A DNA stretch of 63,990 nt, filler included, from Diploschistes diacapsis (taxonomy: Eukaryota): assembly GCA_023645945.1 (NCBI GenBank). It is 4 parts of 4 records of this genome, joined end to end, with 100 filler letters (N's around TTAATTAATTAA, not from the genome) between each part and the next. Parts side by side here need not be neighbours in the genome. Positions count along the whole stretch, not along the records: positions 32,825 to 49,134 come from JALAIB010000514.1; 3 more parts are not named here. One strand, given 5' to 3'. Position numbers and translations under genes: made by a program. The stretch's first letter is position 1; the number at the start of each line of letters is the position of its first letter. Positions 16,314-49,234 of this stretch are shown here, in pieces. Below the pieces are notes generated by a model that searched no databases, had not been told where the DNA came from, and saw only the letters and a list, made by a program, of their open reading frames with translations.

Positions 16314-16413
16314 NNNNNNNNNNNNNNNNNNNNNNNNNNNNNNNNNNNNNNNNNNNNTTAATTAATTAANNNNNNNNNNNNNNNNNNNNNNNNNNNNNNN
16401 NNNNNNNNNNNNN
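16314..16413. other. Artificial contig linker N44-TTAATTAATTAA-N44
   Basis: Exactly 100 bp with a core that has stops in all six frames; identical to the two other linkers. Confidence 0.98.
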
Positions 16414-32724: not shown

Positions 32725-32824
32725 NNNNNNNNNNNNNNNNNNNNNNNNNNNNNNNNNNNNNNNNNNNNTTAATTAATTAANNNNNNNNNNNNNNNNNNNN
32801 NNNNNNNNNNNNNNNNNNNNNNNN
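32725..32824. other. Artificial contig linker N44-TTAATTAATTAA-N44
   Basis: Same 100-bp structure as the other linkers. Confidence 0.98.
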
Positions 32825-37594: not shown

Positions 37595-38716
37595 TCAGTT
37601 TCTATATTTTGCTAGAGCAGCTTTCATGCTCTCGCTCAGCTCGGGTTCCTGATTCCTTGCTTTCCTAGAAGCGAGCTCTGAAGTTGACTCTCCAGATGGA
37701 AGGGCTGTCGAGGCATCTAGTGACTGCAGAACTCCTCCTCGTTCTTTGTCAACACGACAATTGCTAAAGCGCTCGGTAGCCAACTCTTCACGCGCTTCGA
37801 AGGCAGTGTCCCCAGCCTCTGTTTGCTTATTTTCCTCTAGTGCGACCTTCCTGCTAATCCCTGTAGGCAACATCCCGATCGGCACAGCCTCCGATTCTCT
37901 ACTTCTTCCAGCCTCGCCCTTCTTTTTCGCCGTCTTTTGGATGCGAAAAGGTTCCCGAACACTGTCGTGCCATCTCTTGACCTTGACCTCTCCCCAACCT
38001 TGCACACTGGCAATCTCTTCTTTCCGAGCGTTGACGGCTGCCCGCACGCTTCCAAACGCGCTGACCAGCCCCACGGCGTCGGCTTTATGTATGCCTCGAG
38101 GAACAGTGACAAACTCGACCATTCGCTCCGCATAGCTCATTGCCTGCTGTCCTCGAATGCCGGTTGGTGCTGCATGCTCGAGGACTTTGTAGGCCTCGAG
38201 GTAACGCGCCGCTTCCCGTGCGGACCAAGCGAGTATCAAAGTTAAATTGTTGACCAGACTTGTCTTTGCCAACTCTCGTAATGGCTCCTCATGATTATCG
38301 ATATCGACCATTGACATGAGCACGCGCAGATTGAATTTCCCCGCTAATTGACGTATCCGCTGGTAGATGTACTCAGGATGCAGGCGATGATACTTGAGAG
38401 ACAGAAATAGCGCACAAGTGGTTGCACCGAGGACGTAGTCAGCTATCGTATCGCTGTATTCCCATGGCAGAGCTTTGATTTGAGTCAGGATAGGATTGCC
38501 TTTCTGACGGGGTGATACAAGGATTGAACTAGGACCAGAGGGGCGGGCGATTGCTTGTGGAGTGGGCTGTGTGACCTTTTGTTGAGCAGGATTTGTTTGC
38601 GCCGAAGAAGAGCTTGCAGCAGCTTTGGAGGAATTGGCTCGAAATGGTTTATCTTTCTCAACAGCATTTGCCAAAGCAAGAAAGTCTGCATCTGCAGTAA
38701 GGTCGTCTTCATCCAT
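37595..38716 (-). CDS. RAD10: Nucleotide excision repair endonuclease subunit Rad10/ERCC1 (Swi10)
   Basis: ILVSPRQKGNPIL, DYVLGATTCALFLSLKYHRLHPEYIY, LILAWSAREAARYLE, HhH region GWGEVKV. Confidence 0.95.
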   Translation of the reverse strand: MDEDDLTADADFLALANAVEKDKPFRANSSKAAASSSSAQTNPAQQKVTQPTPQAIARPSGPSSILVSPRQKGNPILTQIKALPWEYSDTIADYVLGATTCALFLSLKYHRLHPEYIYQRIRQLAGKFNLRVLMSMVDIDNHEEPLRELAKTSLVNNLTLILAWSAREAARYLEAYKVLEHAAPTGIRGQQAMSYAERMVEFVTVPRGIHKADAVGLVSAFGSVRAAVNARKEEIASVQGWGEVKVKRWHDSVREPFRIQKTAKKKGEAGRSRESEAVPIGMLPTGISRKVALEENKQTEAGDTAFEAREELATERFSNCRVDKERGGVLQSLDASTALPSGESTSELASRKARNQEPELSESMKAALAKYRN

Positions 38717-39004
38717 GGTGGGAGATAATTTGATAAAGGAGCAAGGCTTGGCAAGTAAAGCTTACAGAGAAATCTGCGTCGCACTCACCCCAGAGCTAGC
38801 CGCCCTAGCGCGCGACTTCGGGTGAGGAGTAAATCCGTCACCTAATTTAACACGCGACGTGGCAACAAATATAATATTTAATAATAAGCGTGTTTTTATT
38901 TTTAGTTTGATTTAGGTAAATGTGAAGGAACTTTATTTGGATCTAATATACCTTTAGTTTAGAAATCTTATTGATTCCAGATTTAACCCATAATGTTATA
39001 CGTT

Positions 39005-39030
39005 ATTCTTAAGCGAAGCGCAGGACTATA
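39005..39030 (+). repeat. Left arm of a long-range inverted repeat (ATTCTTAAGCGAAGCGCAGGACTATA)
   Basis: 39010-39030 is the exact reverse complement of 47029-47049; 25/26 match when extended to 39005/47054. Confidence 0.9.
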
Positions 39031-39189
39031 GTAGTAGATCAGTGTCTTCATGGGCGCAGAGAAAACCGTAGATAAGAAATCAACTCCGAAAGTCGCGGTT
39101 AATTAATCGAACTGAATTATAATTAAATGATAAAGTGTGCTGAGGAACCCGTGCATTACATATGTTCTAGCGATTTCGCATTTTCCGTG

Positions 39190-39976
39190 TCCATATCGCA
39201 TGGATTGCCTCTCGCTCCATAGTCTTCTCCCCGTGATAACCCTCGGCCTGGGCAAAGTAATATCCCCTCTGGTTTGTAAGCAGCCGTGAAATCGCAGTTG
39301 TAATGCGTATGCCCAAACGCCCAAACTTTGACTCTGTCACTCTTGAAGCATACCTCGTCTGATAAGTCCGTTGAGAAAGCGCTCATGATGGGGCTCCCAG
39401 CATGCCTCGGCTCGATCGCACGAACATCCAGCGATGGGCTCCAATGCGAAAAGATGATGATATTAACATCGGACTGTTCAAGGTCTGCGACCTGCGCGTT
39501 GAGCCAGGCAAGATCCCGCGTATGCGCCTCGTTGTGCATGCCGACGTCCCAGTCGCTGGTTTGGAAAAAGTCATTGAGCCCGCGGTTGACCGCCATTTGT
39601 CTTTCAGGCGGGATGGAAGAAAAGAGGCTGCAGTCCAGAATGGTAACGTTCGTGCCGGGCAGCTGGAAGGCTGTGTGGTCGAGCAATATAAACTCTCCCA
39701 ATGACTTGTTCTTACGGACGTCCTGTTCGAAAGCGCGAAGGATATCGAGAGTGTCAGGCCAGTTGGAATGATAGGCTTCATGATTGCCGGGGACGAAAAG
39801 CACAGCGCGGAACAGGTTGAGCTGTAGGGTCAAGCAGGCAAGGTAGTCGTCCTTGTGCAATGCAACGTTGCCCACGTCGCCAAGAAGCGCTAGGTAGGGC
39901 GCCTTTGGACGATCTTGAAGATATCGTAGGCTTTGGGGGCCTCCAAATGCAGGTCGGAGAGAATCTGGACCGCCAT
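39190..39976 (-). pseudogene. Calcineurin-like metallophosphoesterase pseudogene (two frameshifts)
   Basis: MAVQILSDLHLE in one frame; LLGDVG, VPGNHEAY, FSHWSP and FGHTHYNCDF in a second; the family's terminal TNQRGY in a different frame near 39260-39280. Confidence 0.85.
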
Positions 39977-40109
39977 CGCGAGGTTGGTGGTGCAGATGCC
40001 AAGAGGACAGAAATGTGCCCCGACTTCACCCCTCTTGCGGACTAGAGTGATGGCTGCCCTGATTCTCGCGCAACTTGGGTGAAACTTAGGTGAGCCCAAG
40101 TGAGCCCAG

Positions 40110-40697
40110 CTAAGGTGGAACTTTTCTCTGAAAAGGCTTCTATAGAGATCGTACAAATGTTGCTGAAGGCCGGCGCTGATATTAACGCTCAAGGGAGTGT
40201 TTACGGCACTGCTCTACAGGCAGCTTCAACAGGCTGCATGTGCTTCATTCTTACCCGACAAGGAGCTAGTGCAAACACTTTTGAACGCCGACACCGACAT
40301 CAATGCCCAAGGAGGAGTATATGGTAACGCTCTCAAGGCTGCTTCCTACAAGGGCTCTGAGAATCTCGTACGAAGGCTACTAGAGGCCGGTGCAAACGTC
40401 AATGCTCATGGAGGAGTTTATGGTAGTGCCCTACAAGCTGCTTGTGCTTCATGTAAACCTCAAGAGAGCATAGTACGGATGCTTTTAGATGCCGGTGCTG
40501 AAGTCAATGCGCAAGGAGGGAAATTTGACAGCGTTTCGCTGGCTGTTTTATCGAAAATTTACACAGAGGGAATCCAACTCGAACTGCCTGATGAGTACAA
40601 TATTCCTTTCGGGTACGACGAAGGTATACCAGATGACCGGCAAGGGGAAGACTTTTCCTCTTCTGATGAATCCTTACCATTGATTACGGAGAATTAA
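40110..40697 (+). pseudogene. Ankyrin-repeat C-terminal fragment (GADINAQGGxYGxALQAA type, typical of fungal NACHT-ankyrin proteins)
   Basis: About four repeats; frameshift near 40250; no upstream NACHT or start codon. Confidence 0.8.
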
Positions 40698-41009
40698 GGA
40701 CATTTCTGCAAAATTTTCTATTAATAGTCACATTAACCGTCATTCCTATTCCTCACTCTATCCTTTTCTTTGCCTCTGAAAGCTAATGGTGGGAAGACTA
40801 TCCTACGGATATCTCATGAGAACTGGGATTTGTCTTCTGCAAGCGGCATCCAGTAGTGGCCTTCTAGCTATCGGTAAGTACCAGCACTTTCTGTAAGAAC
40901 CTATTGCCAATCGTTTGACCGCCCTAAGCAGTCCATCCTTTTAAAATGATTTGTTGTAGATTGCTGCAAACATTCTGCAACCGTCGCAGACAATAACATT
41001 GCAAACCTT

Positions 41010-41342
41010 CATCAACTCATGCTTCAATGCTGTGATGAACGTTAGTGCGCTGACTATACCGACGTTGACCGATTTGACGCCTTTGGTGAAATTCATCGGG
41101 TTTGCCAGGTCATCGGGGCTGTCCTAGTCAACTATGTTGGGGTCGACATCTGGTGCTTTCTCAACGTCTATTGACGCCTCAACAGGCATGGCCTCTTGAT
41201 CTTCTGCGTCAGAGAGGGACCCATTGATAGCCAGCTCTGGGCTTGCAATTCTCTCGCCGTCTCTAGATGTCCAAATGGGCGTGGAATCTTGTTCTCCCGC
41301 GCTTCTGGAACTCGGTACAGAGGGACTCGAGGTTGTAGCCAT
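41010..41342 (-). pseudogene. N-terminal fragment of a DHA1-type MFS drug transporter
   Basis: DVEKAPDVDPNIVD*DSPDDLANPMNFTKGVKSVNVGIVSALTFIT matches the family VDWDGPDDPxNPxNW pattern, with W replaced by TAG; homology ends after TM1. Confidence 0.75.
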
Positions 41343-42099
41343 GCTGCTGGTACCGTTGATTTAACTCGAAATTGTTGATGGTTCTCATGGGACTTAATAG
41401 CAGGAGGTTCAAATTTAAGAGAGCAAAAGAGTGGATATAGATCAAGAGAGATCTCGAGGAGCTCCATTTCCATCTGTCAACGAATCAGAGATTTTTGAGT
41501 AGTCCATTCTTGAAATCGCTCTGTCCTAGCCCACCTAGGAATTGCCCCTATTCCGGGTCCCTTTCTTAGTCAAGCCAAGATGTCTAAAGGCCACATTTCA
41601 TGCACTTCGTACCATAGCAGGACAACGTTATCTGTTTGGCCTAGAATGCAAAGGAGACAAACCCTTCCCACCTTTTAGATGGTAGGTTAGATGAGTTGAG
41701 ACGATCAAAGAGAGCCATTCGGCTTGATCATGCATTCTCTGCGTTTGCTGGGGATGTCGTCGGAAGAATCTGCTGTGAGACTCCGCCAAATATGATGAAC
41801 CAGGCTGGATTTTGGGCGCATTCGTTAGTAATCTTAACGTCGATGTCTTCAGCGAAGATTGTTCGGATATAACCATAGACAAGACTTGATCGAGAGAATT
41901 ATGAGGCAGCTTCTACTGTTCATGCATCTTCCTGTTCCGGTCAGGTATGTACCCTGCTAGCGGTATCTGAAAAGCAGACTTCTCTGTAGCGATAGCTTGG
42001 TTCGCATGATATCAACCATTTTCCTGTTCCAAGTCTATCCGGAGCCGCAGGATTCAACTCATTCCGCATAGTTAGTCTCATTCCATCCAACGAACTTCA

Positions 42100-43010
42100 A
42101 TGCGATTGCAGCTTGCACAATTCATAGCTAGCAATGTAGCACATCGTAGACTCAAAGCGCTGAACCTTAGTCCTTGAAAAGTTAATGAGAATGCAACGAG
42201 TTTCATCGTTCGGCACATTGTTTCAAGCGATATGCCTGGGTCTGAACGCTCCATGGAGCGGCTGAATAGAGAAGCTATGGTATTGTTCGGTGCCGGCAAA
42301 GCGAGGACTGCACATACAATGGGCTTCATGTCCTAGTAAATTCTACGCAACCAACACGTGAAGGAACGTCTTGGAAGCAAGCTAAAGGATGCCATGGCCG
42401 ACTGTCCCAAAAACCTGCCAAGATGTGCAGACTTAGGGAGTTGCCTTACCTACTGGCGGCGATCAAGGAAGGACTTCCGTAAATCTGATGCAGAACTCCA
42501 GAAGCACTGTGGCTAGTCTGAGCTTCGGCGTTATTTGTCGTCTTGCCCGCTGCTCTTCTGACATTGCGCTCAAGTACAAGCAATGGACTCTTCCTAAGAA
42601 CACCCCTGTTGGAATGGGAGCATATTGGACGCATACTGATCCAGAAGTCAACCAGAAACCCTCCAAGCTCATCTCCAACTGCTGGCTAGGGGACTATGAC
42701 CTAAGAATGACAGAAAATTGGGTTGTTTTCTCCAAGGGATCGAGGAACTGCTTGGGCGTCAAGTAAGGATATCCCATCTTTTTCGATTTTCCTGCAATCA
42801 CCATTGCATTACGTCTTTGAGACTCTTGACTGACAAACATGGTTGTTTGTTATATGCTGAGATGGAGTGGGCACCAGCAGTCATCATCAGACCGAACGCA
42901 CCGGAGCTGTCCTTGGTCGCACCGACAAGTCGGACCTCACGCAAACTGTGGATTTCTTGACCCCCCCGCCAAAGTTGGATAGGAAAGGAACAAGACTCGT
43001 GGTAAAATAA
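42100..43010 (+). pseudogene. Cytochrome P450 C-terminal half, multiply disrupted
   Basis: I-helix EAMVLFGAG, K-helix LPYLLAAIKEGL, WTLPKNTPVGM and heme motif FSKGSRNCLG; in-frame stops (TAG TAA near 42334) and frameshifts. Confidence 0.85.
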
Positions 43011-43286
43011 GTGCAGGGAAAGGGTCTGGATAAGAGCGATGCATAGCGTAGAGATATGGCATCGGACACCGTGCAGTGATAAGAGGATACGTGTCCTGGA
43101 GCGGACCTTATTCTATACGTTCATTAGGTATAGAGCGCCCATATTTTCACGCCTCCTTGAGGTGTGCGACCACTGTTCCAGAAAGGTCAGAAGGGCTTGC
43201 CAATCTCGTTAGTTTCAGTGTCTGGCATACTGTTATCTGAATATCTATTTGAGAATTCGTTGATGGGGCTGACAAGGATCGCCTGG

Positions 43287-45854
43287 TTAAGCCGGTCTCG
43301 ATCTATTGGGAAGAGTCATTTTTGATGCAGTTGGACTGATGTATCCTTCCTCGTCTTCCTCGTCCCTTTCTGGGATATCCGATATTTGGCGCTCGTGTCT
43401 TGCTACTCCTTTCCCCTTCCTATCCATGCTAAGGCCGCGCCCACCGGGTCTGCGGTCTCGGTCGGGTGAGCCAATAGTCCCCGCTTCAGTTTCTCCAGAT
43501 CTCTCCTTCACATGCTTCTTTGTCTTGGCATCCATGGGCGCGTCTGATAGGATGACGTTCAACCACTCGGCGAGCCTCAATTTCGCATGTTCCAGCACCG
43601 GTTCGAAGTAGCTCCACGGCATAAAGGTCGGCAAAGTGACAGCGGACCATGTGTCATGCCTTCCAGCGTAGATGACCTCGAGAAACGGCCTTCCATACTG
43701 GACCCTCCGCTTTCTAGTCGATAAGGCCGCCAGTTGGTTCTGGCGGCTTTCGTCAGCAACTATGTCCACGAAGAAGGCACAAGCCGGGCAACACATTTTC
43801 GTCACTGCCAATACTTTGCTGACTTGTCCCGCTTTATCTATTACATCTTGGTCGATGGCATGGTTCTCAGTTTCTAACACGCCAGCGTACTCCAAGTTCT
43901 CCTTGGTCTTGGTTCTCAAAACGGATAAGCTGAGCAGGGCGGTCTCACAGTGCGTGGTGCCGGTGAACTTCGTCGTTTTCTCCCATGCCTTTCGAATGCC
44001 CATCGCTTCTAGCCACTCGTCCAGCCTTTGCTCGGGCTCCACAGCTGCATTGTACTGGGGCACCTTTCTGAGGTAGTCTTTGAACGGCATGAGTTGCGTG
44101 TCTTGTTCGTCGCTGGATAGATCTATCAGGTGAATTTTCAAGTTACGCAGGAATTGATGGACTAGGTCACTGCCTCTTTTCTTGGGAAAGCAGATCGAAC
44201 GAATGGATCGCCAATGTAAGACCACAAGGTCCAACCATCTCCGAGCGGAGCGAGACCAATGCTGCGGCTGCTCGCTTCTATCTCCAATGCTCTCTGTATC
44301 ATCTTCTTCATCGTCGATTGCTTCTTCTTCGCCGAGTATTTCTTCATCTTGACCGCTACCTCCCGTGGTGGACACGACTGGGGCAATTCTTTTCGACCCA
44401 GAAGATGAGCCCGATCCCCGAGAGCCTTTGCTTGATGGTTCTGTACGCTCACGAGTCTGAGCCCTTGACGCTCTGGTAGGAGCAGCGTAAGAGGGTGTCG
44501 CTACTGGCCTTGCTGCTGCCCTTGTCCCATGAGACCTGCCTATGCTCTTTGATTGTTTCGGAAGGCCCGGCTCCAGACTCCATTGAGGGTACTGTTCGAT
44601 TGTACTCTTCAACTTTTGAGATCTCTCTATCCACATCAGGTACTCTAAGATGAAGTCAAAGGACATCCCCGATCCCGAGTCTATCACGCATACATCCAAC
44701 AGCTTGTCAAGGTTCTCAATGGCGCGCAGGAAACTCGCGACTGCCACTTTCAACTCAGTAGCCTTCGCTTCTCTGATGGTATCGTCGGAGTCCATAACAG
44801 TGGCTTCGAAAAGGTTGAGGGCAACACATGCCCGTTCTGCTTCAGCTGTGAGGTTGATCAAGCTTGTCCTTAGCGCTATGCCCAAGCGCTCCTTCCCATC
44901 TACATCGTACATCTTGTATTTTCTCTGGTCGAGGCGGTTCAGTATCCCGATATCACAGTATACCTGCCGTACTGTGTTCGGAAGAAGAAGTTGTTCTCGC
45001 AGATCCATCTGGTCTTTCTGCGCTCTTAGGCCTAACTGCAGAGGGGTCGAGGTAAGATAGGCATATAGATTGCGCCCAGAGGGCTGTTTAGGCCCTTTTT
45101 TGGTGCTTGCCTTCATTGCATGCTTGCCCCGTTCGATACGGGCCTTGATCTTGAACGCGCTTGCCATAGCCACATATCTCTGTATCATGTGGTACCACTC
45201 TATTTTGCCTTCTTCGTTTGGCGAGGCATGTACTCGGCGAATCATGGCTCCAAGCAGTTCCACATGGCGAGGAAAGGCTACCTTCCAGTGTGTCCTCTCT
45301 TTACCGCCGACCACATTATAGTTAGGGATGTAGTTCGATTTGGTCAGGAGCCATTCCGTTAGCGAGAAGACCGCTTCTGGGTCGGTCATGACTGGAGGGT
45401 CGGAAAGTACTTGGCTGGTGATTCGAGTCTGGTGCTTGTTCTGGGGAGACCCTTGTGTCGGCTGAGTAGCGCGCAAAGTGTTCGGAGGTATTTCGGCGCG
45501 ATAGGGGTTGCGTGTTATTAACAGGTCATCTATCAAGTTATACTCGCTAAGCGTATCCACTGTCTCTGAGAAGTACGTGACATTGATTTTGAATGGGTGA
45601 CCTGGAGAAGCCGCAACAATTTCGGGTCCACGAACCAAAAGGTTGACAAAAGCTGTGCTTAGATGGAACAGAGTGACGTCTACTGGTCGTTGAGCCGCTG
45701 TTTGCGAGATAGCTGTACGGAGGTGCTCCTTTGTATCGAAAGACAAAGCTGCATTCGAGTGCTCGAAAAGCGATAGCATTTGAGTGACTGTTCTAATCTC
45801 GAGCACATCCATGCGATCAGGCAATATCTTTTGTTTCTGGGACGAAGCCGCCAT
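43287..45854 (-). CDS. Large intronless protein (~855 aa) with a C-terminal zinc-dependent nucleic-acid deaminase-like domain (OTT_1508-like)
   Basis: Uninterrupted ORF (open from 45980; first ATG at 45854); FTGTTHCETALL at ~43944-43952, AVTKMCCPAC at ~43779-43793, downstream GRHDTWSAVTLP; N-terminal FVNLLVRGPEIVAA. Confidence 0.75.
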   Translation of the reverse strand: MAASSQKQKILPDRMDVLEIRTVTQMLSLFEHSNAALSFDTKEHLRTAISQTAAQRPVDVTLFHLSTAFVNLLVRGPEIVAASPGHPFKINVTYFSETVDTLSEYNLIDDLLITRNPYRAEIPPNTLRATQPTQGSPQNKHQTRITSQVLSDPPVMTDPEAVFSLTEWLLTKSNYIPNYNVVGGKERTHWKVAFPRHVELLGAMIRRVHASPNEEGKIEWYHMIQRYVAMASAFKIKARIERGKHAMKASTKKGPKQPSGRNLYAYLTSTPLQLGLRAQKDQMDLREQLLLPNTVRQVYCDIGILNRLDQRKYKMYDVDGKERLGIALRTSLINLTAEAERACVALNLFEATVMDSDDTIREAKATELKVAVASFLRAIENLDKLLDVCVIDSGSGMSFDFILEYLMWIERSQKLKSTIEQYPQWSLEPGLPKQSKSIGRSHGTRAAARPVATPSYAAPTRASRAQTRERTEPSSKGSRGSGSSSGSKRIAPVVSTTGGSGQDEEILGEEEAIDDEEDDTESIGDRSEQPQHWSRSARRWLDLVVLHWRSIRSICFPKKRGSDLVHQFLRNLKIHLIDLSSDEQDTQLMPFKDYLRKVPQYNAAVEPEQRLDEWLEAMGIRKAWEKTTKFTGTTHCETALLSLSVLRTKTKENLEYAGVLETENHAIDQDVIDKAGQVSKVLAVTKMCCPACAFFVDIVADESRQNQLAALSTRKRRVQYGRPFLEVIYAGRHDTWSAVTLPTFMPWSYFEPVLEHAKLRLAEWLNVILSDAPMDAKTKKHVKERSGETEAGTIGSPDRDRRPGGRGLSMDRKGKGVARHERQISDIPERDEEDEEGYISPTASKMTLPNRSRPA

Positions 45855-45967
45855 TGTGACACGCGTGAAGAGAATAACTTTATGGATCACGGTCTGCCAA
45901 TATCGAAGAAGAGATCTCTGGGAACGGAGACTTAAAGCCAGGTAGGAGCCGGATGAACACGAGATGT

Positions 45968-46009
45968 GAAGATAGACCAAAGAAGATAGACCAAAGAAAA
46001 TAGATCAAG
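45968..46009 (+). repeat. Three tandem copies of a 14-bp unit (GAAGATAGACCAAA x2 plus one degenerate copy)
   Basis: Read directly; ~115 bp upstream of the deaminase-like ORF ATG. Confidence 0.85.
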
Positions 46010-47028
46010 CAAGATTGAGGCCAATTCTAATCGAGGAAAATCACGTAGGGTAGATTTTCAGTGAATATTCTCCAGGCAAAGTATTAGATGGAAGATAAAG
46101 CAAATGAGAGTGAGTCAGAGCTACATCGAAGGAAATTTCGATAACCCTATTTTACCCACGCACTGATGCACAAAGCAGGCAAAATTGCAATATGTTGAGT
46201 CCGGAGAAAAAGTCAGAAGGGGATTCTGAAGATGTTAATCAATTCTAACTAAAGTGGCTAACTAGACCTTATCACGGTTAAGAAGTAAATTTTTTTCTCG
46301 AGGCCAAGTACAAAAACAGCATATATTGATAGACCGTGCTGTGAGCATATTTGTTATAAGAGAAAGAGTTACTGTAAAGGCAATGACACTACTGAAAGAC
46401 TATCCTACCATGGATTCAGCGCAGCCCGCAGAAAGCGGACAGCTGCACTCTTATATCTGATAACTATCCCAGATACACCTAGCCCTACAGCGTAAGCCGA
46501 AACTACATGCTCTTATATCGATAACAGACTCAACGTATAATGAGGGTGATTGAGCTGTCAACCAAGCGATCGCAACAGCCCAGGCATGACTTTTCGTGGT
46601 GTCATGCTATACACAACACCTATGGAGTACGCCTCATATTCCGTCTTGCCTATAATGACTGCCATTAAGGAGGCTATTTTTGCAAAGAAGCGTTGAACTT
46701 TGCATATACAAACGTGGTTTTGCTACGGAGATAAGGGGTTAAACCCGAATGCTTATTATAAATTACCACGTAGATTCGCTTCGTAGGTCAGTTTTTGCCC
46801 CATTTACGCAATCATCTCACTCGGGCTCGTTATTGCTTATGTACATACAAACCCCCCAAACGACATGATCTAACATCCGATGAGTCGACAACTACGCCTG
46901 CTTTATCAGCAGCAGAGATTTTATGAAATAGTAATCTAGTAATCTTTGTTGCGGGCCCTAAATCCCGTCAGCTACACAATTCTCACTATGCAATCGAATC
47001 ACAAGATAAATCACACGGAGTCATATAA

Positions 47029-47054
47029 TATAGTCCTGCGCTTCGCTTAGGAAT
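47029..47054 (-). repeat. Right arm of the long-range inverted repeat (TATAGTCCTGCGCTTCGCTTAGGAAT)
   Basis: Reverse complement of 39005-39030 with 1 mismatch. Confidence 0.9.
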
Positions 47055-47741
47055 TATGGTTGCTTAGGTAATCCAAAGCCCGCATCCCAAGTTCTTTCTG
47101 CTCCTGAAACTGCAAGGACATCCCCATTTTCAGTACGATGTTTGGACAGCTTCGCAAAATCGCCCAGTTCAGCTACTCGGAGGCGGTGTCCAAATAGTAA
47201 GCGCTTCAAGCTGTGCGGGAAGACAAAGTTCAGGCCGAAATGCCTATCGTCGAGTCAACCGTCTGCTATCAGGCCTTCTATGCCATGCATACTAGTATGA
47301 AGCTCCGTCGTTCTGGCTCAGTATCAGCGTGGACTTTCGCAGCCAACGATTCGTGATCAAAGGAGCGTACACTAATGTTACCAGTGGACTTTCACCACGG
47401 GGATGCCGGGCGGCCCGCAGAAAGCGGTCGACTTCAAGTTATATCCCCCATAGCTTGTTCGATACTGCTTTCGATAAGCTCTGAGGCCCGGGTATTTTTG
47501 GATGTAGAGACCCTTGTAGGGACTTGTCCGTCAATTACGGGCCATTCGTGATAGCTCACATGAGATATCTCACCGAATATCCTGACATTGGGGGCACTAA
47601 TGTTGGTTATCTAATAGTGGCAAAGAGTAGGTGGACGTTCTTTATGTCAATAGAACTTATATAAACTCTGCACCCACGGCTCTACACGAACATATTTTCT
47701 CTTTATCGCCCCTTTCTCTTGTTCAATTGACATCCTTCGCC

Positions 47742-48713
47742 ATGAGCGAACTTAAAACGCTCTCGGAATCGGGAGAGTATCTCACCGAGGAAACCCATGA
47801 AAGCGTCTACAATGAAATAGATCCTTCGAACATACGGCTCGAACGTCCATTCGTTGCATGCGTTATTGGCGCGAGCCGTGGCATTGGGGCGGGCATTGCG
47901 AAAGCCTTCGCCACGGCTAGCGCCAGCACCATTATCCTAGCAGCACGCTCGACGGACCAGCTACAGAGCGTCGCGGAGGAAATCAAGCAGCTCAACTCCA
48001 AAGTCGAAGTTCCGACGATGAAATGCGATGTGACTTCGGAGAGCAGTCTTTCAGAGCTGGCATCCAAGATAGAGGCCGACTTTGAGAGGCTGGATGCGAT
48101 TATTTACAACTCTGGTTATGCTGGGAAATTCGTTATGAAGGTTACGGAAGGCAAGCCATCGGAATTTGAGAGAGGCTTTGCCGTCAACAGCATCGGTACA
48201 TATTACGCTGCGCATTTCTTGATACCGTTACTGCTCAAGTCCTCCAACGGAGCCAAGCTGTTCATCGCTGTATCGACCGCCGGATCCTGGATGAAGAACG
48301 GCCTATTTGCCAGCCCCGGTTACTGCATTAGTAAATTGGCCCAGATGAGGCTACTGGAGATGATCTCGATCCAGTATCGGAACGAGGGGCTATTCGCTGC
48401 GGGTGTTCATCCTGGCGCAGTGAAGACCGAGATGGCGAAAGACGCTCCAGAAGAATTCCTGCCATGTATGTGCCACAGCTTACTCTTCCCTTGGTCGTGC
48501 ATATGGTTTGCTGATATGCTTGACGTTCTAGATTTGGTCGATGACGTTGCCCTGTGCGGCGCGTTCTGCACTTGGCTTGCTGCCAATAGGAAAGAGCTTG
48601 AATGGCTGAACGGACGGTATCTGTCCGCGAAGTGGGATGTGAAACAGCTGGCGTCCATGAAGGATGCCATTGTCAGCGGTGATTTGCTTACTGCCGGACT
48701 TCGGCTTCCGTAG
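47742..48713 (+). CDS. Short-chain dehydrogenase/reductase (one 66-nt intron, ~48466-48531)
   Basis: VIGASRGIG Rossmann motif, CDVT, YCISK catalytic motif, VHPGAVKT, WLNGRYLSAKWD. Confidence 0.92.
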   Translation: MSELKTLSESGEYLTEETHESVYNEIDPSNIRLERPFVACVIGASRGIGAGIAKAFATASASTIILAARSTDQLQSVAEEIKQLNSKVEVPTMKCDVTSESSLSELASKIEADFERLDAIIYNSGYAGKFVMKVTEGKPSEFERGFAVNSIGTYYAAHFLIPLLLKSSNGAKLFIAVSTAGSWMKNGLFASPGYCISKLAQMRLLEMISIQYRNEGLFAAGVHPGAVKTEMAKDAPEEFLPCMCHSLLFPWSCIWFADMLDVLDLVDDVALCGAFCTWLAANRKELEWLNGRYLSAKWDVKQLASMKDAIVSGDLLTAGLRLP

Positions 48714-49134: not shown

Positions 49135-49234
49135 NNNNNNNNNNNNNNNNNNNNNNNNNNNNNNNNNNNNNNNNNNNNTTAATTAATTAANNNNNNNNNN
49201 NNNNNNNNNNNNNNNNNNNNNNNNNNNNNNNNNN
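49135..49234. other. Artificial contig linker N44-TTAATTAATTAA-N44
   Basis: Same 100-bp structure as the other linkers. Confidence 0.98.

Follow-up and report, generated by a model that had tools for sequence, protein, structure and literature searches.

Two Helitron2-like 5′ ends facing each other across a decaying gene patch in Diploschistes diacapsis: a probable case of independent insertion

Results

Gene content of the interval between the arms

The window analysed here, a stretch of 63,990 nucleotides from the Diploschistes diacapsis assembly GCA_023645945.1, comprises four contigs joined by N linkers, and both arms of the inverted repeat under study, together with everything between them, lie wholly on contig C3824. 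A comparison of the window sequence with itself re-found the exact inverted 21-mer reported in an earlier, sequence-only reading: positions 39010-39030 are the exact reverse complement of 47029-47049, and the identity on lengthening the arms to 26 letters (25/26) was also reported correctly. This pair is the sole exact inverted 21-mer in the window apart from an (AT)n run, against a chance expectation of 0.0005. The genes named on either side, RAD10 to the left and a short-chain dehydrogenase to the right, are upheld by Pfam. The features of the locus are as follows.

37595..38716, minus: RAD10/ERCC1, flanking host gene, outside any element (PF03834, E 3e-48)
39003..39006, plus: TTAT, TNAT target half-site of the left insertion (TNAT is found directly upstream of 66 of the 80 5′ ends fetched)
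39007..39128, plus: putative Helitron2/HLE2 5′ fragment of ~120 bp containing the left arm, 39010-39030 (80-91% identity to other copies)
39156..39976, minus: metallophosphoesterase pseudogene, frameshift near 39900 (PF00149, E 5e-8)
40120..40697, plus: ankyrin-repeat gene fragment, frameshifted (Pfam)
42437..42766, plus: cytochrome P450 pseudogene, Pfam-matched part (PF00067, E 1.3e-6)
43287..45854, minus: intact ORF, predicted 855-aa OTT_1508-like deaminase-fold protein (PF14441 clusters, HxE and CCPxC motifs)
47027..47052, minus: 26-nt stub of a putative Helitron2 5′ end, TCCTAAGCGAAGCGCAGGACTATATT then A, containing the right arm, 47029-47049
47053..47056, minus: TAAT, TNAT target half-site of the right insertion
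47745..48713, plus: short-chain dehydrogenase (SDR), flanking context gene (PF00106, E 1.7e-31)

Three of the four broken genes claimed for the interior could be given names (metallophosphoesterase, ankyrin and P450, the last of which extends by eye beyond its Pfam-matched part on both sides), but the fourth has no Pfam match at E≤0.01. The interior is single-copy save for short repeats at ~39997-40060 and 46700-46760, no paralogous donor copy of it was found in the genome, its RIP indices are host-gene-like, and its ORF coverage is 0.51, versus 0.48-0.60 in the rest of the window. It holds no RepHel, and the interior frames scanned (all six for 40.1-42.1 and 45.9-47.0 kb, and a smaller number for the remainder) returned no match to a transposase, DUF3435 or other recombinase. 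The 8 kb between the arms are most likely resident accessory DNA, with genes decaying in place.

The single intact 2.6-kb ORF proposed for the interior is present as described, and encodes 855 amino acids with the motifs H635-C-E637 and C688-C-P-A-C692; residues H635, C636, E637, C688, C689 and C692 are nearly invariant across 12 aligned proteins. An exhaustive search for relatives returned 61 matches including the protein itself, which was all that a word-index search recovered. The top atlas clusters carry PF14441 (0.91-0.93, with a recognition value below threshold, and so a weak assignment), and PF14441 occurs below its cut-off in 6 of 16 relatives. Together with the conserved HCE and CCPxC motifs, these matches bear out the earlier deaminase-like call, and the prediction of an OTT_1508-like deaminase holds on this evidence. 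The protein shares with the OTT_1508-like deaminases (PF14441) the HxE and CCPxC motifs, with fungal clusters as its nearest atlas matches, and differs from them in that it matches no Pfam family itself (PF14441 does not rise above the curated cut-off), that its closest full-length relative is 32% identical, and that its activity is predicted.

The arm motif belongs to a dispersed, asymmetric family

At up to three mismatches the arm motif matches 86 places across the 29.1-Mb genome, 40 of them exactly (control, 1), in either orientation (38 forward, 48 reverse) and spread over 78 contigs; viral contigs gave 0 matches. The genome-wide count, on which the sequence-only reading had beforehand let its bounded island stand or fall, is thus that of a dispersed repeat. 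DNA directly upstream of the copies is unique; past the motif, the 80 fetched ends divide into 48 with a common conserved stretch of ~100 bp, which in many cases leads into a 15-bp minisatellite, and 32 that lack this stretch. The terminal 13-mer is found at 127 places, by which the opposite terminus of the element came to light. Contig C71 carries a complete copy of 667 bp, which opens at TCAT^TCCTAAGCGAAG and closes with the inverted 13-mer, then a 10-bp hairpin and GATATT, and complete copies of 110 bp and 292 bp follow the same plan. The corresponding 3′-end pattern (13-bp ATIR, mostly 30 or 40 nt, GATATT) has 46 matches at 45 places (control, 0), 43 of which carry the common tail by eye.

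One complete copy, L049, has the asymmetric inverted repeat at its 5′ end and again before its 3′ end, where the last 54 nt are predicted to form a 10-bp stem (-11.8 kcal/mol). The predicted 5′ hairpin is weak (-3.3 and -2.0 kcal/mol), and a TAAGC-GAA-GCTTA variant of the 5′ end, present at three places, forms a perfect hairpin by eye. Insertion falls between TNAT and A: TNAT lies upstream of 66/80 5′ ends, A is the next base at 27 of 30 true 3′ ends (two of an initial 32 rows proved to be 5′ ends and were dropped), and the flanks of three complete copies show no duplication.

A search for a Rep-helicase beside the motif, as the sequence-only reading had recommended, was productive. Helitron_like_N (PF14214) has two matches genome-wide, both ~2 kb downstream of an arm-type 5′ end and in the same orientation. 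On contig C341, a single stop-riddled frame, read with X at the stops for the domain search, carries DUF6570 (3e-19), Helitron_like_N (4.5e-15) and PIF1 (1.8e-11), and on C4287 a RepHel likewise lies behind a family 5′ end (tblastn). The C341 frame is 33% identical to an intact protein over 99% of its own length, has RIP-like dinucleotide ratios, and returned no match to an endonuclease domain, which points to a Helitron2-type rather than a Helentron-type element. DUF6570, reported to be HLE2-specific (PMC11417382), is present in four of the five relatives found. The 3′ part of the C341 element leaves the contig, and nothing in common was seen with 12 non-autonomous 3′ regions. Its termini, its target and the RepHel behind it identify the arm motif as the 5′ end of a putative Helitron2/HLE2 family similar to FoHeli1/2 of Fusarium, and the family as a predicted new FoHeli1/2-type member of an already known kind, in a fungus from a lichen metagenome.

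Two 5′ ends at the locus

Both arms are 5′ ends of one asymmetric Helitron2 family. The left begins at 39007 after TTAT, its likeness to other family copies ends at 39127-39128, and downstream of it there is neither minisatellite nor 3′ end; the right is a 26-nt stub between TAAT and A. They differ in subfamily (TATAGT versus TATATT) and in divergence. No 3′ tail of the family was found in the window at two mismatches, the 3′-end pattern has no match on C3824, nor on C3863, and the hairpin plus GATATT that terminate true elements are absent beyond both arms. For the 8-kb interval to be a single HLE2 cargo element, it would need one 5′ and one 3′ end, but it has two 5′ ends. The original proposal, an island or cargo element with a TIR pair at its borders, is therefore unsupported on three counts: both arms are 5′ ends, the 3′ end is missing from the window, and the motif is dispersed. 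Nor did the AACC(C)ATAAT string noted outside both arms prove meaningful, as its likeness is at chance level among unrelated 5′ flanks: a word of at least seven letters, such as CCATAAT, is common to 197 of 3160 pairs of such flanks, and an equal alignment score is reached in 319 of 3160. An extended TIR was rejected on these grounds.

Same-contig pairs elsewhere in the genome

Five widely spaced pairs of ends share a contig. The suggestion that copies might pair as inverted ends finds some support in a second inward pair on C3863, but is tempered by two outward pairs and one same-direction pair; the outward pairs are partly an assembly effect, through breaks. The C3863 pair spans 9.1 kb and contains NmrA and MFS genes; one of its ends is a stub of 28-29 nt, the other a 26-nt stub, with a MITE inside. 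All four ends of the two inward pairs (8.0 and 9.1 kb) lack a 3′ partner. If ends were placed uniformly, the number of inward pairs expected within 10 kb would be 0.06-0.40, varying with how many ends are counted; the probability of one more inward pair beyond that by which the locus was ascertained is 0.06-0.33, and of two 0.002-0.06, these being rough figures from the sizes of 25 contigs. Each inward pair shows TTA...TTA, which has P=0.21 for each from the TNAT target bias alone. A stub-plus-MITE unit moving as one piece was considered for C3863 and rejected: the MITE of L031 is oriented oppositely to that of L089, and stub and MITE are thus separate insertions.

The interior in other samples

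The sequencing run with the best match to this DNA is a lichen metagenome, perhaps its very source, and no RNA run was among those listed as containing it. Contigs from two further sequencing runs, each of another study, contain pieces of the interior. Those of run X2 cover at least 39284-40115, 42070-44262, 44423-45086 and 45825-46534, and those of X3 at least 39284-39812, 42573-42960, 44894-45702, 45853-46247 and 46348-47056; this last piece includes the right stub, in place and joined to its interior flank. Both runs carry 29 extra letters near 39285 in the metallophosphoesterase, so that the break there is peculiar to this strain, consistent with decay in situ. One X2 contig jumps from 40115 to 42070, skipping a 1954-bp block (40116-42069) in favor of 369 other letters; the ankyrin fragment lies within this block, whose borders are unrelated to the arms. 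The five joints listed include no skip of the whole interval and no change of strand, bearing in mind that such contigs can show presence and not absence, and none of the X2 and X3 contigs listed reaches from an arm into at least 31 letters of the outer flank. Run X4 contains almost none of the interval. The depth of X2 contigs was 28 at 39.3-40.1 and 42.1-44.3 kb versus ~80-130 elsewhere; these values are not copy numbers and were not weighed. Sixteen RAD10 loci from distant fungi in metagenomes (50-68% identity) have no other gene of the window beside them, SDR included, and without any shared neighbour are uninformative on synteny.

Stand-alone 26-nt stubs

Strict 26-nt stubs number 11 genome-wide, the right arm included (control, 0). 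Base 27 is A in 18 of the 32 ends with unique downstream DNA, versus 2/48 of the others, as expected from a TNAT^A target if the unit ends at nt 26. On contig C3006 the 26-nt unit is doubled head-to-tail ahead of a full 5′ end, with an ATATT-to-TC junction, and three places, all of them stubs, carry a variant that has two changes in common. On C3803 a stub sits inside a decayed BCS1-like gene, where omitting exactly 26 letters yields the longest frame and the Pfam match covers only the downstream part. Open-frame continuity was assessed at 18 stub-like sites: removal of 26 nt gave clearly the longest frame at three (L034, L035 and L044, with Pfam backing only the downstream half at L035), and the other 15 were uninformative. 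We lean towards reading the 26-nt stubs as direct insertions after early termination, which would rank them with the smallest Helitron units; had the DNA between the two ATATT words been lost instead, the sequence outcome would be identical. In a title-level search, with subscription literature mostly outside its reach, no title was devoted to stand-alone 26-nt HLE2 stubs.

Discussion

The arrangement at this locus is very probably the product of two independent Helitron2 5′-end insertions, which came to lie head-to-head by chance around a locally decaying patch of accessory genes. The sequence-only reading had offered, as its alternative, a small element inserted twice, independently and in opposite orientations, and this alternative is now the best supported. 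Each arm would have inserted in its own TNAT^A target, the two facing each other by chance. A RepHel acting in trans may have nicked the donor at the 5′ end and then stopped early: in the case of the right arm possibly at the internal TATATT (nt 21-26), a mimic of the true GATATT end, leaving a 26-nt stub, and in the case of the left arm after ~120 nt, unless that copy was trimmed by a later deletion. On this account the 8-kb interior would not have been delivered by the arms.

A linked origin, in which both 5′ ends trace to one RepHel-driven event, whether an inversion of the 8-kb block in place or its transfer as cargo flanked by head-to-head 5′ ends (a composite HLE2), is the strongest of the competing explanations, and we consider it unlikely. 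That it retains some credence is due to the second inward pair and to the reported presence of FoHeli1 at the borders of deletions and rearrangements in Fusarium (PMC13342296). The two inward pairs are moreover of similar size (8.0 and 9.1 kb), have four ends without a 3′ partner and exceed the uniform expectation modestly, and the 13-bp ATIR is contained in the reverse complement of the 5′ end. Against a common event stand the missing 3′ hairpin and GATATT beyond both arms, the unlike subfamilies and divergence of the arms, the single stubs at ~10 other places, and an interior without a paralogous donor copy, pieces of which recur in two other studies with the sole join-supported structural variant ending away from the arms. 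Owing to the symmetry of the sequence, the reconstructed target fits the independent and the linked models alike, and does not discriminate between them. The broader proposition, that 5′ ends lying head-to-head, even stubs cut to 26 nt at an internal ATATT, can serve an HLE2 RepHel as borders for inverting or relocating 8-9 kb of host genes, has at best a slim chance of being correct. If it were, composite islands of TIR-like appearance would be the work of a rolling-circle element, and the two inward pairs, with their accessory-type genes, would be its products.

A Pack-type cut-and-paste element with captured genes (PIF/Harbinger- or Zator-like, with a 25-bp TIR and a TTA target duplication) is suggested by the TTA ahead of 39006 and after 47053, and likewise at C3863, and is very improbable: the match of TTA with TTA, a pseudo-duplication, arises at P=0.21 from TNAT bias alone, complete family members are asymmetric at their ends and lack a TSD, the motif leads into a RepHel gene and not a DDE transposase, and no transposase domain was found among the scanned interior frames. 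A derelict Starship or recombinase-bounded island is the least credible of all, for while broken accessory-type genes (ankyrin, P450 and metallophosphoesterase) resemble Starship cargo, the scanned interior frames gave no DUF3435 or other recombinase and the boundaries are fully accounted for as HLE2 5′ ends.

With two independent insertions as the preferred reading, the locus has no significance as an island, its TIR pair being false. Asymmetric Helitron2 ends, scattered at ~1 per 340 kb, can imitate cargo transposons down to the TSD, and in this respect the locus is a useful warning. The most interesting residue, and the sole feature that merits follow-up, is the 26-nt stubs. Their exact length points to a possible termination site of the HLE2 RepHel, and they may easily be overlooked as 26-bp insertion mutagens, one of which lies in the decayed BCS1-like gene.

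Comparison with known systems

Pack-MULE, Pack-CACTA and Starship cargo elements have inverted ends around gene fragments. The likeness of the present locus to these is superficial, as the arms here are the same end of an asymmetric element, present twice, and the locus shows no TSD beyond chance, no mobilising gene and no paralogous donor copies. Helitrons have been reported as abundant in lichen fungi, with enrichment in some of them (PMC13535494), in a report whose main text does not contain the words HLE2 and Helitron2. The family shares with the HLE2 clade (Helitron2/Helentron), as characterized in PMC11417382, short TIRs of 11-18 nt, a 3′ stem-loop after the right repeat, and DUF6570 upstream of RepHel, and differs from that description in its target, which is TNAT^A here and T^T there.

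The closest likeness is to FoHeli1 and FoHeli2, Helitron2 elements of Fusarium oxysporum, which are described as having an asymmetric inverted repeat located 38-51 bp ahead of ATATTTT, an insertion site between TNAT and A, and multiple and partial 5′ termini (PMC5148889). Common to those elements and to the present family are a 5′ end with a GAA-loop hairpin, a weak fold by prediction in the present family, followed by GACT..TAYATT at nt ~24-26; a 12-13-bp ATIR found again 30-50 nt ahead of the 3′ end, itself in (T)ATT(TT), with a 3′ hairpin; the TNAT^A target without TSD, and multiple or partial 5′ termini; and short non-autonomous derivatives, with assembly breaks at copies (PMC5148889). The present family is set apart by its own termini (5′ TCCTAAGCGAAG, 3′ CATGATATT), by the 15-bp minisatellite of its non-autonomous copies, and by RepHel copies that are full of stops. 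It differs further in the form of its partial copies, which include at least 11 stand-alone 26-nt stubs, versus partial copies of FoHeli1 comprising the first 31 or 65 bp of the 5′ end (PMC5148889).

Window composition and interior

The window comprises four separate contigs of approximately 16 kb, joined by N linkers, so adjacency across the linkers is not real.

16314-16413, 32725-32824 and 49135-49234: N linkers, containing TTAATTAATTAA
33774-37601, minus strand: multi-intron gene to the left of RAD10
39997-40060 and 46700-46760: two further short repeats, each represented elsewhere in the genome by a few copies

The gene to the left of RAD10 looks intact by eye and contains an alpha/beta-hydrolase-like motif (FICHGLGG), with no Pfam match at E<=0.01. 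In X2, a sequencing run from another study, the interval 39284-44262 is represented by a single contig of 4797 nt at a depth of 28, compared with approximately 80-130 over the flanks and 44.4-47 kb. This contig may reflect presence/absence, or a highly divergent allele, from near the left arm to inside the deaminase gene, for which depth alone is insufficient proof. Genomic copies of the short repeats lie in contig C4311 and at loci L113, L038 and L119; two of these copies are close to Helitron 5' ends.

Helitron ends across the genome

In the assembly, the HLE2 5' end occurs as a strict 26-nt stub at eleven places, all of them TNRT^A sites. Two substitutions, found in stubs only, are common to three of the eleven, and the next 10 letters are identical in two of these three.

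C380, C549, C1029, C1291, C1335, C3223, C3257, C3402, C3824, C3887 and C4278: strict 26-nt stubs, by contig
C3803:6931-6956 (L035): decayed BCS1-like AAA gene with a 26-nt stub in its 5' part
C3863:28897-37981 (L031): second inward stub pair, spaced 9.1 kb apart
C341:1-6307, minus strand (L050), and C4287 (L097): RepHel copies (DUF6570-Rep-PIF1)
L031:9235-9460, and in L089, L091 and L120: MITE of ~200-220 bp

The second inward pair encloses NmrA-like and MFS genes. Both RepHel copies are full of stops and RIP-like, with (EP)n linkers, and a genome search with PF14214 found no intact autonomous copy. In non-autonomous copies (L022, L013, L014 and L010), a 15-bp minisatellite of up to 58 or more units directly follows the 5' end, and these arrays account for many contig breaks. 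The MITE has long TIRs beginning ACGTGTT and is flanked by TA. Within the Helitron 5' end it occupies one and the same TA in L031, L089 and L091, in opposite orientations in the first two, and in L120 it adjoins a 3' end.
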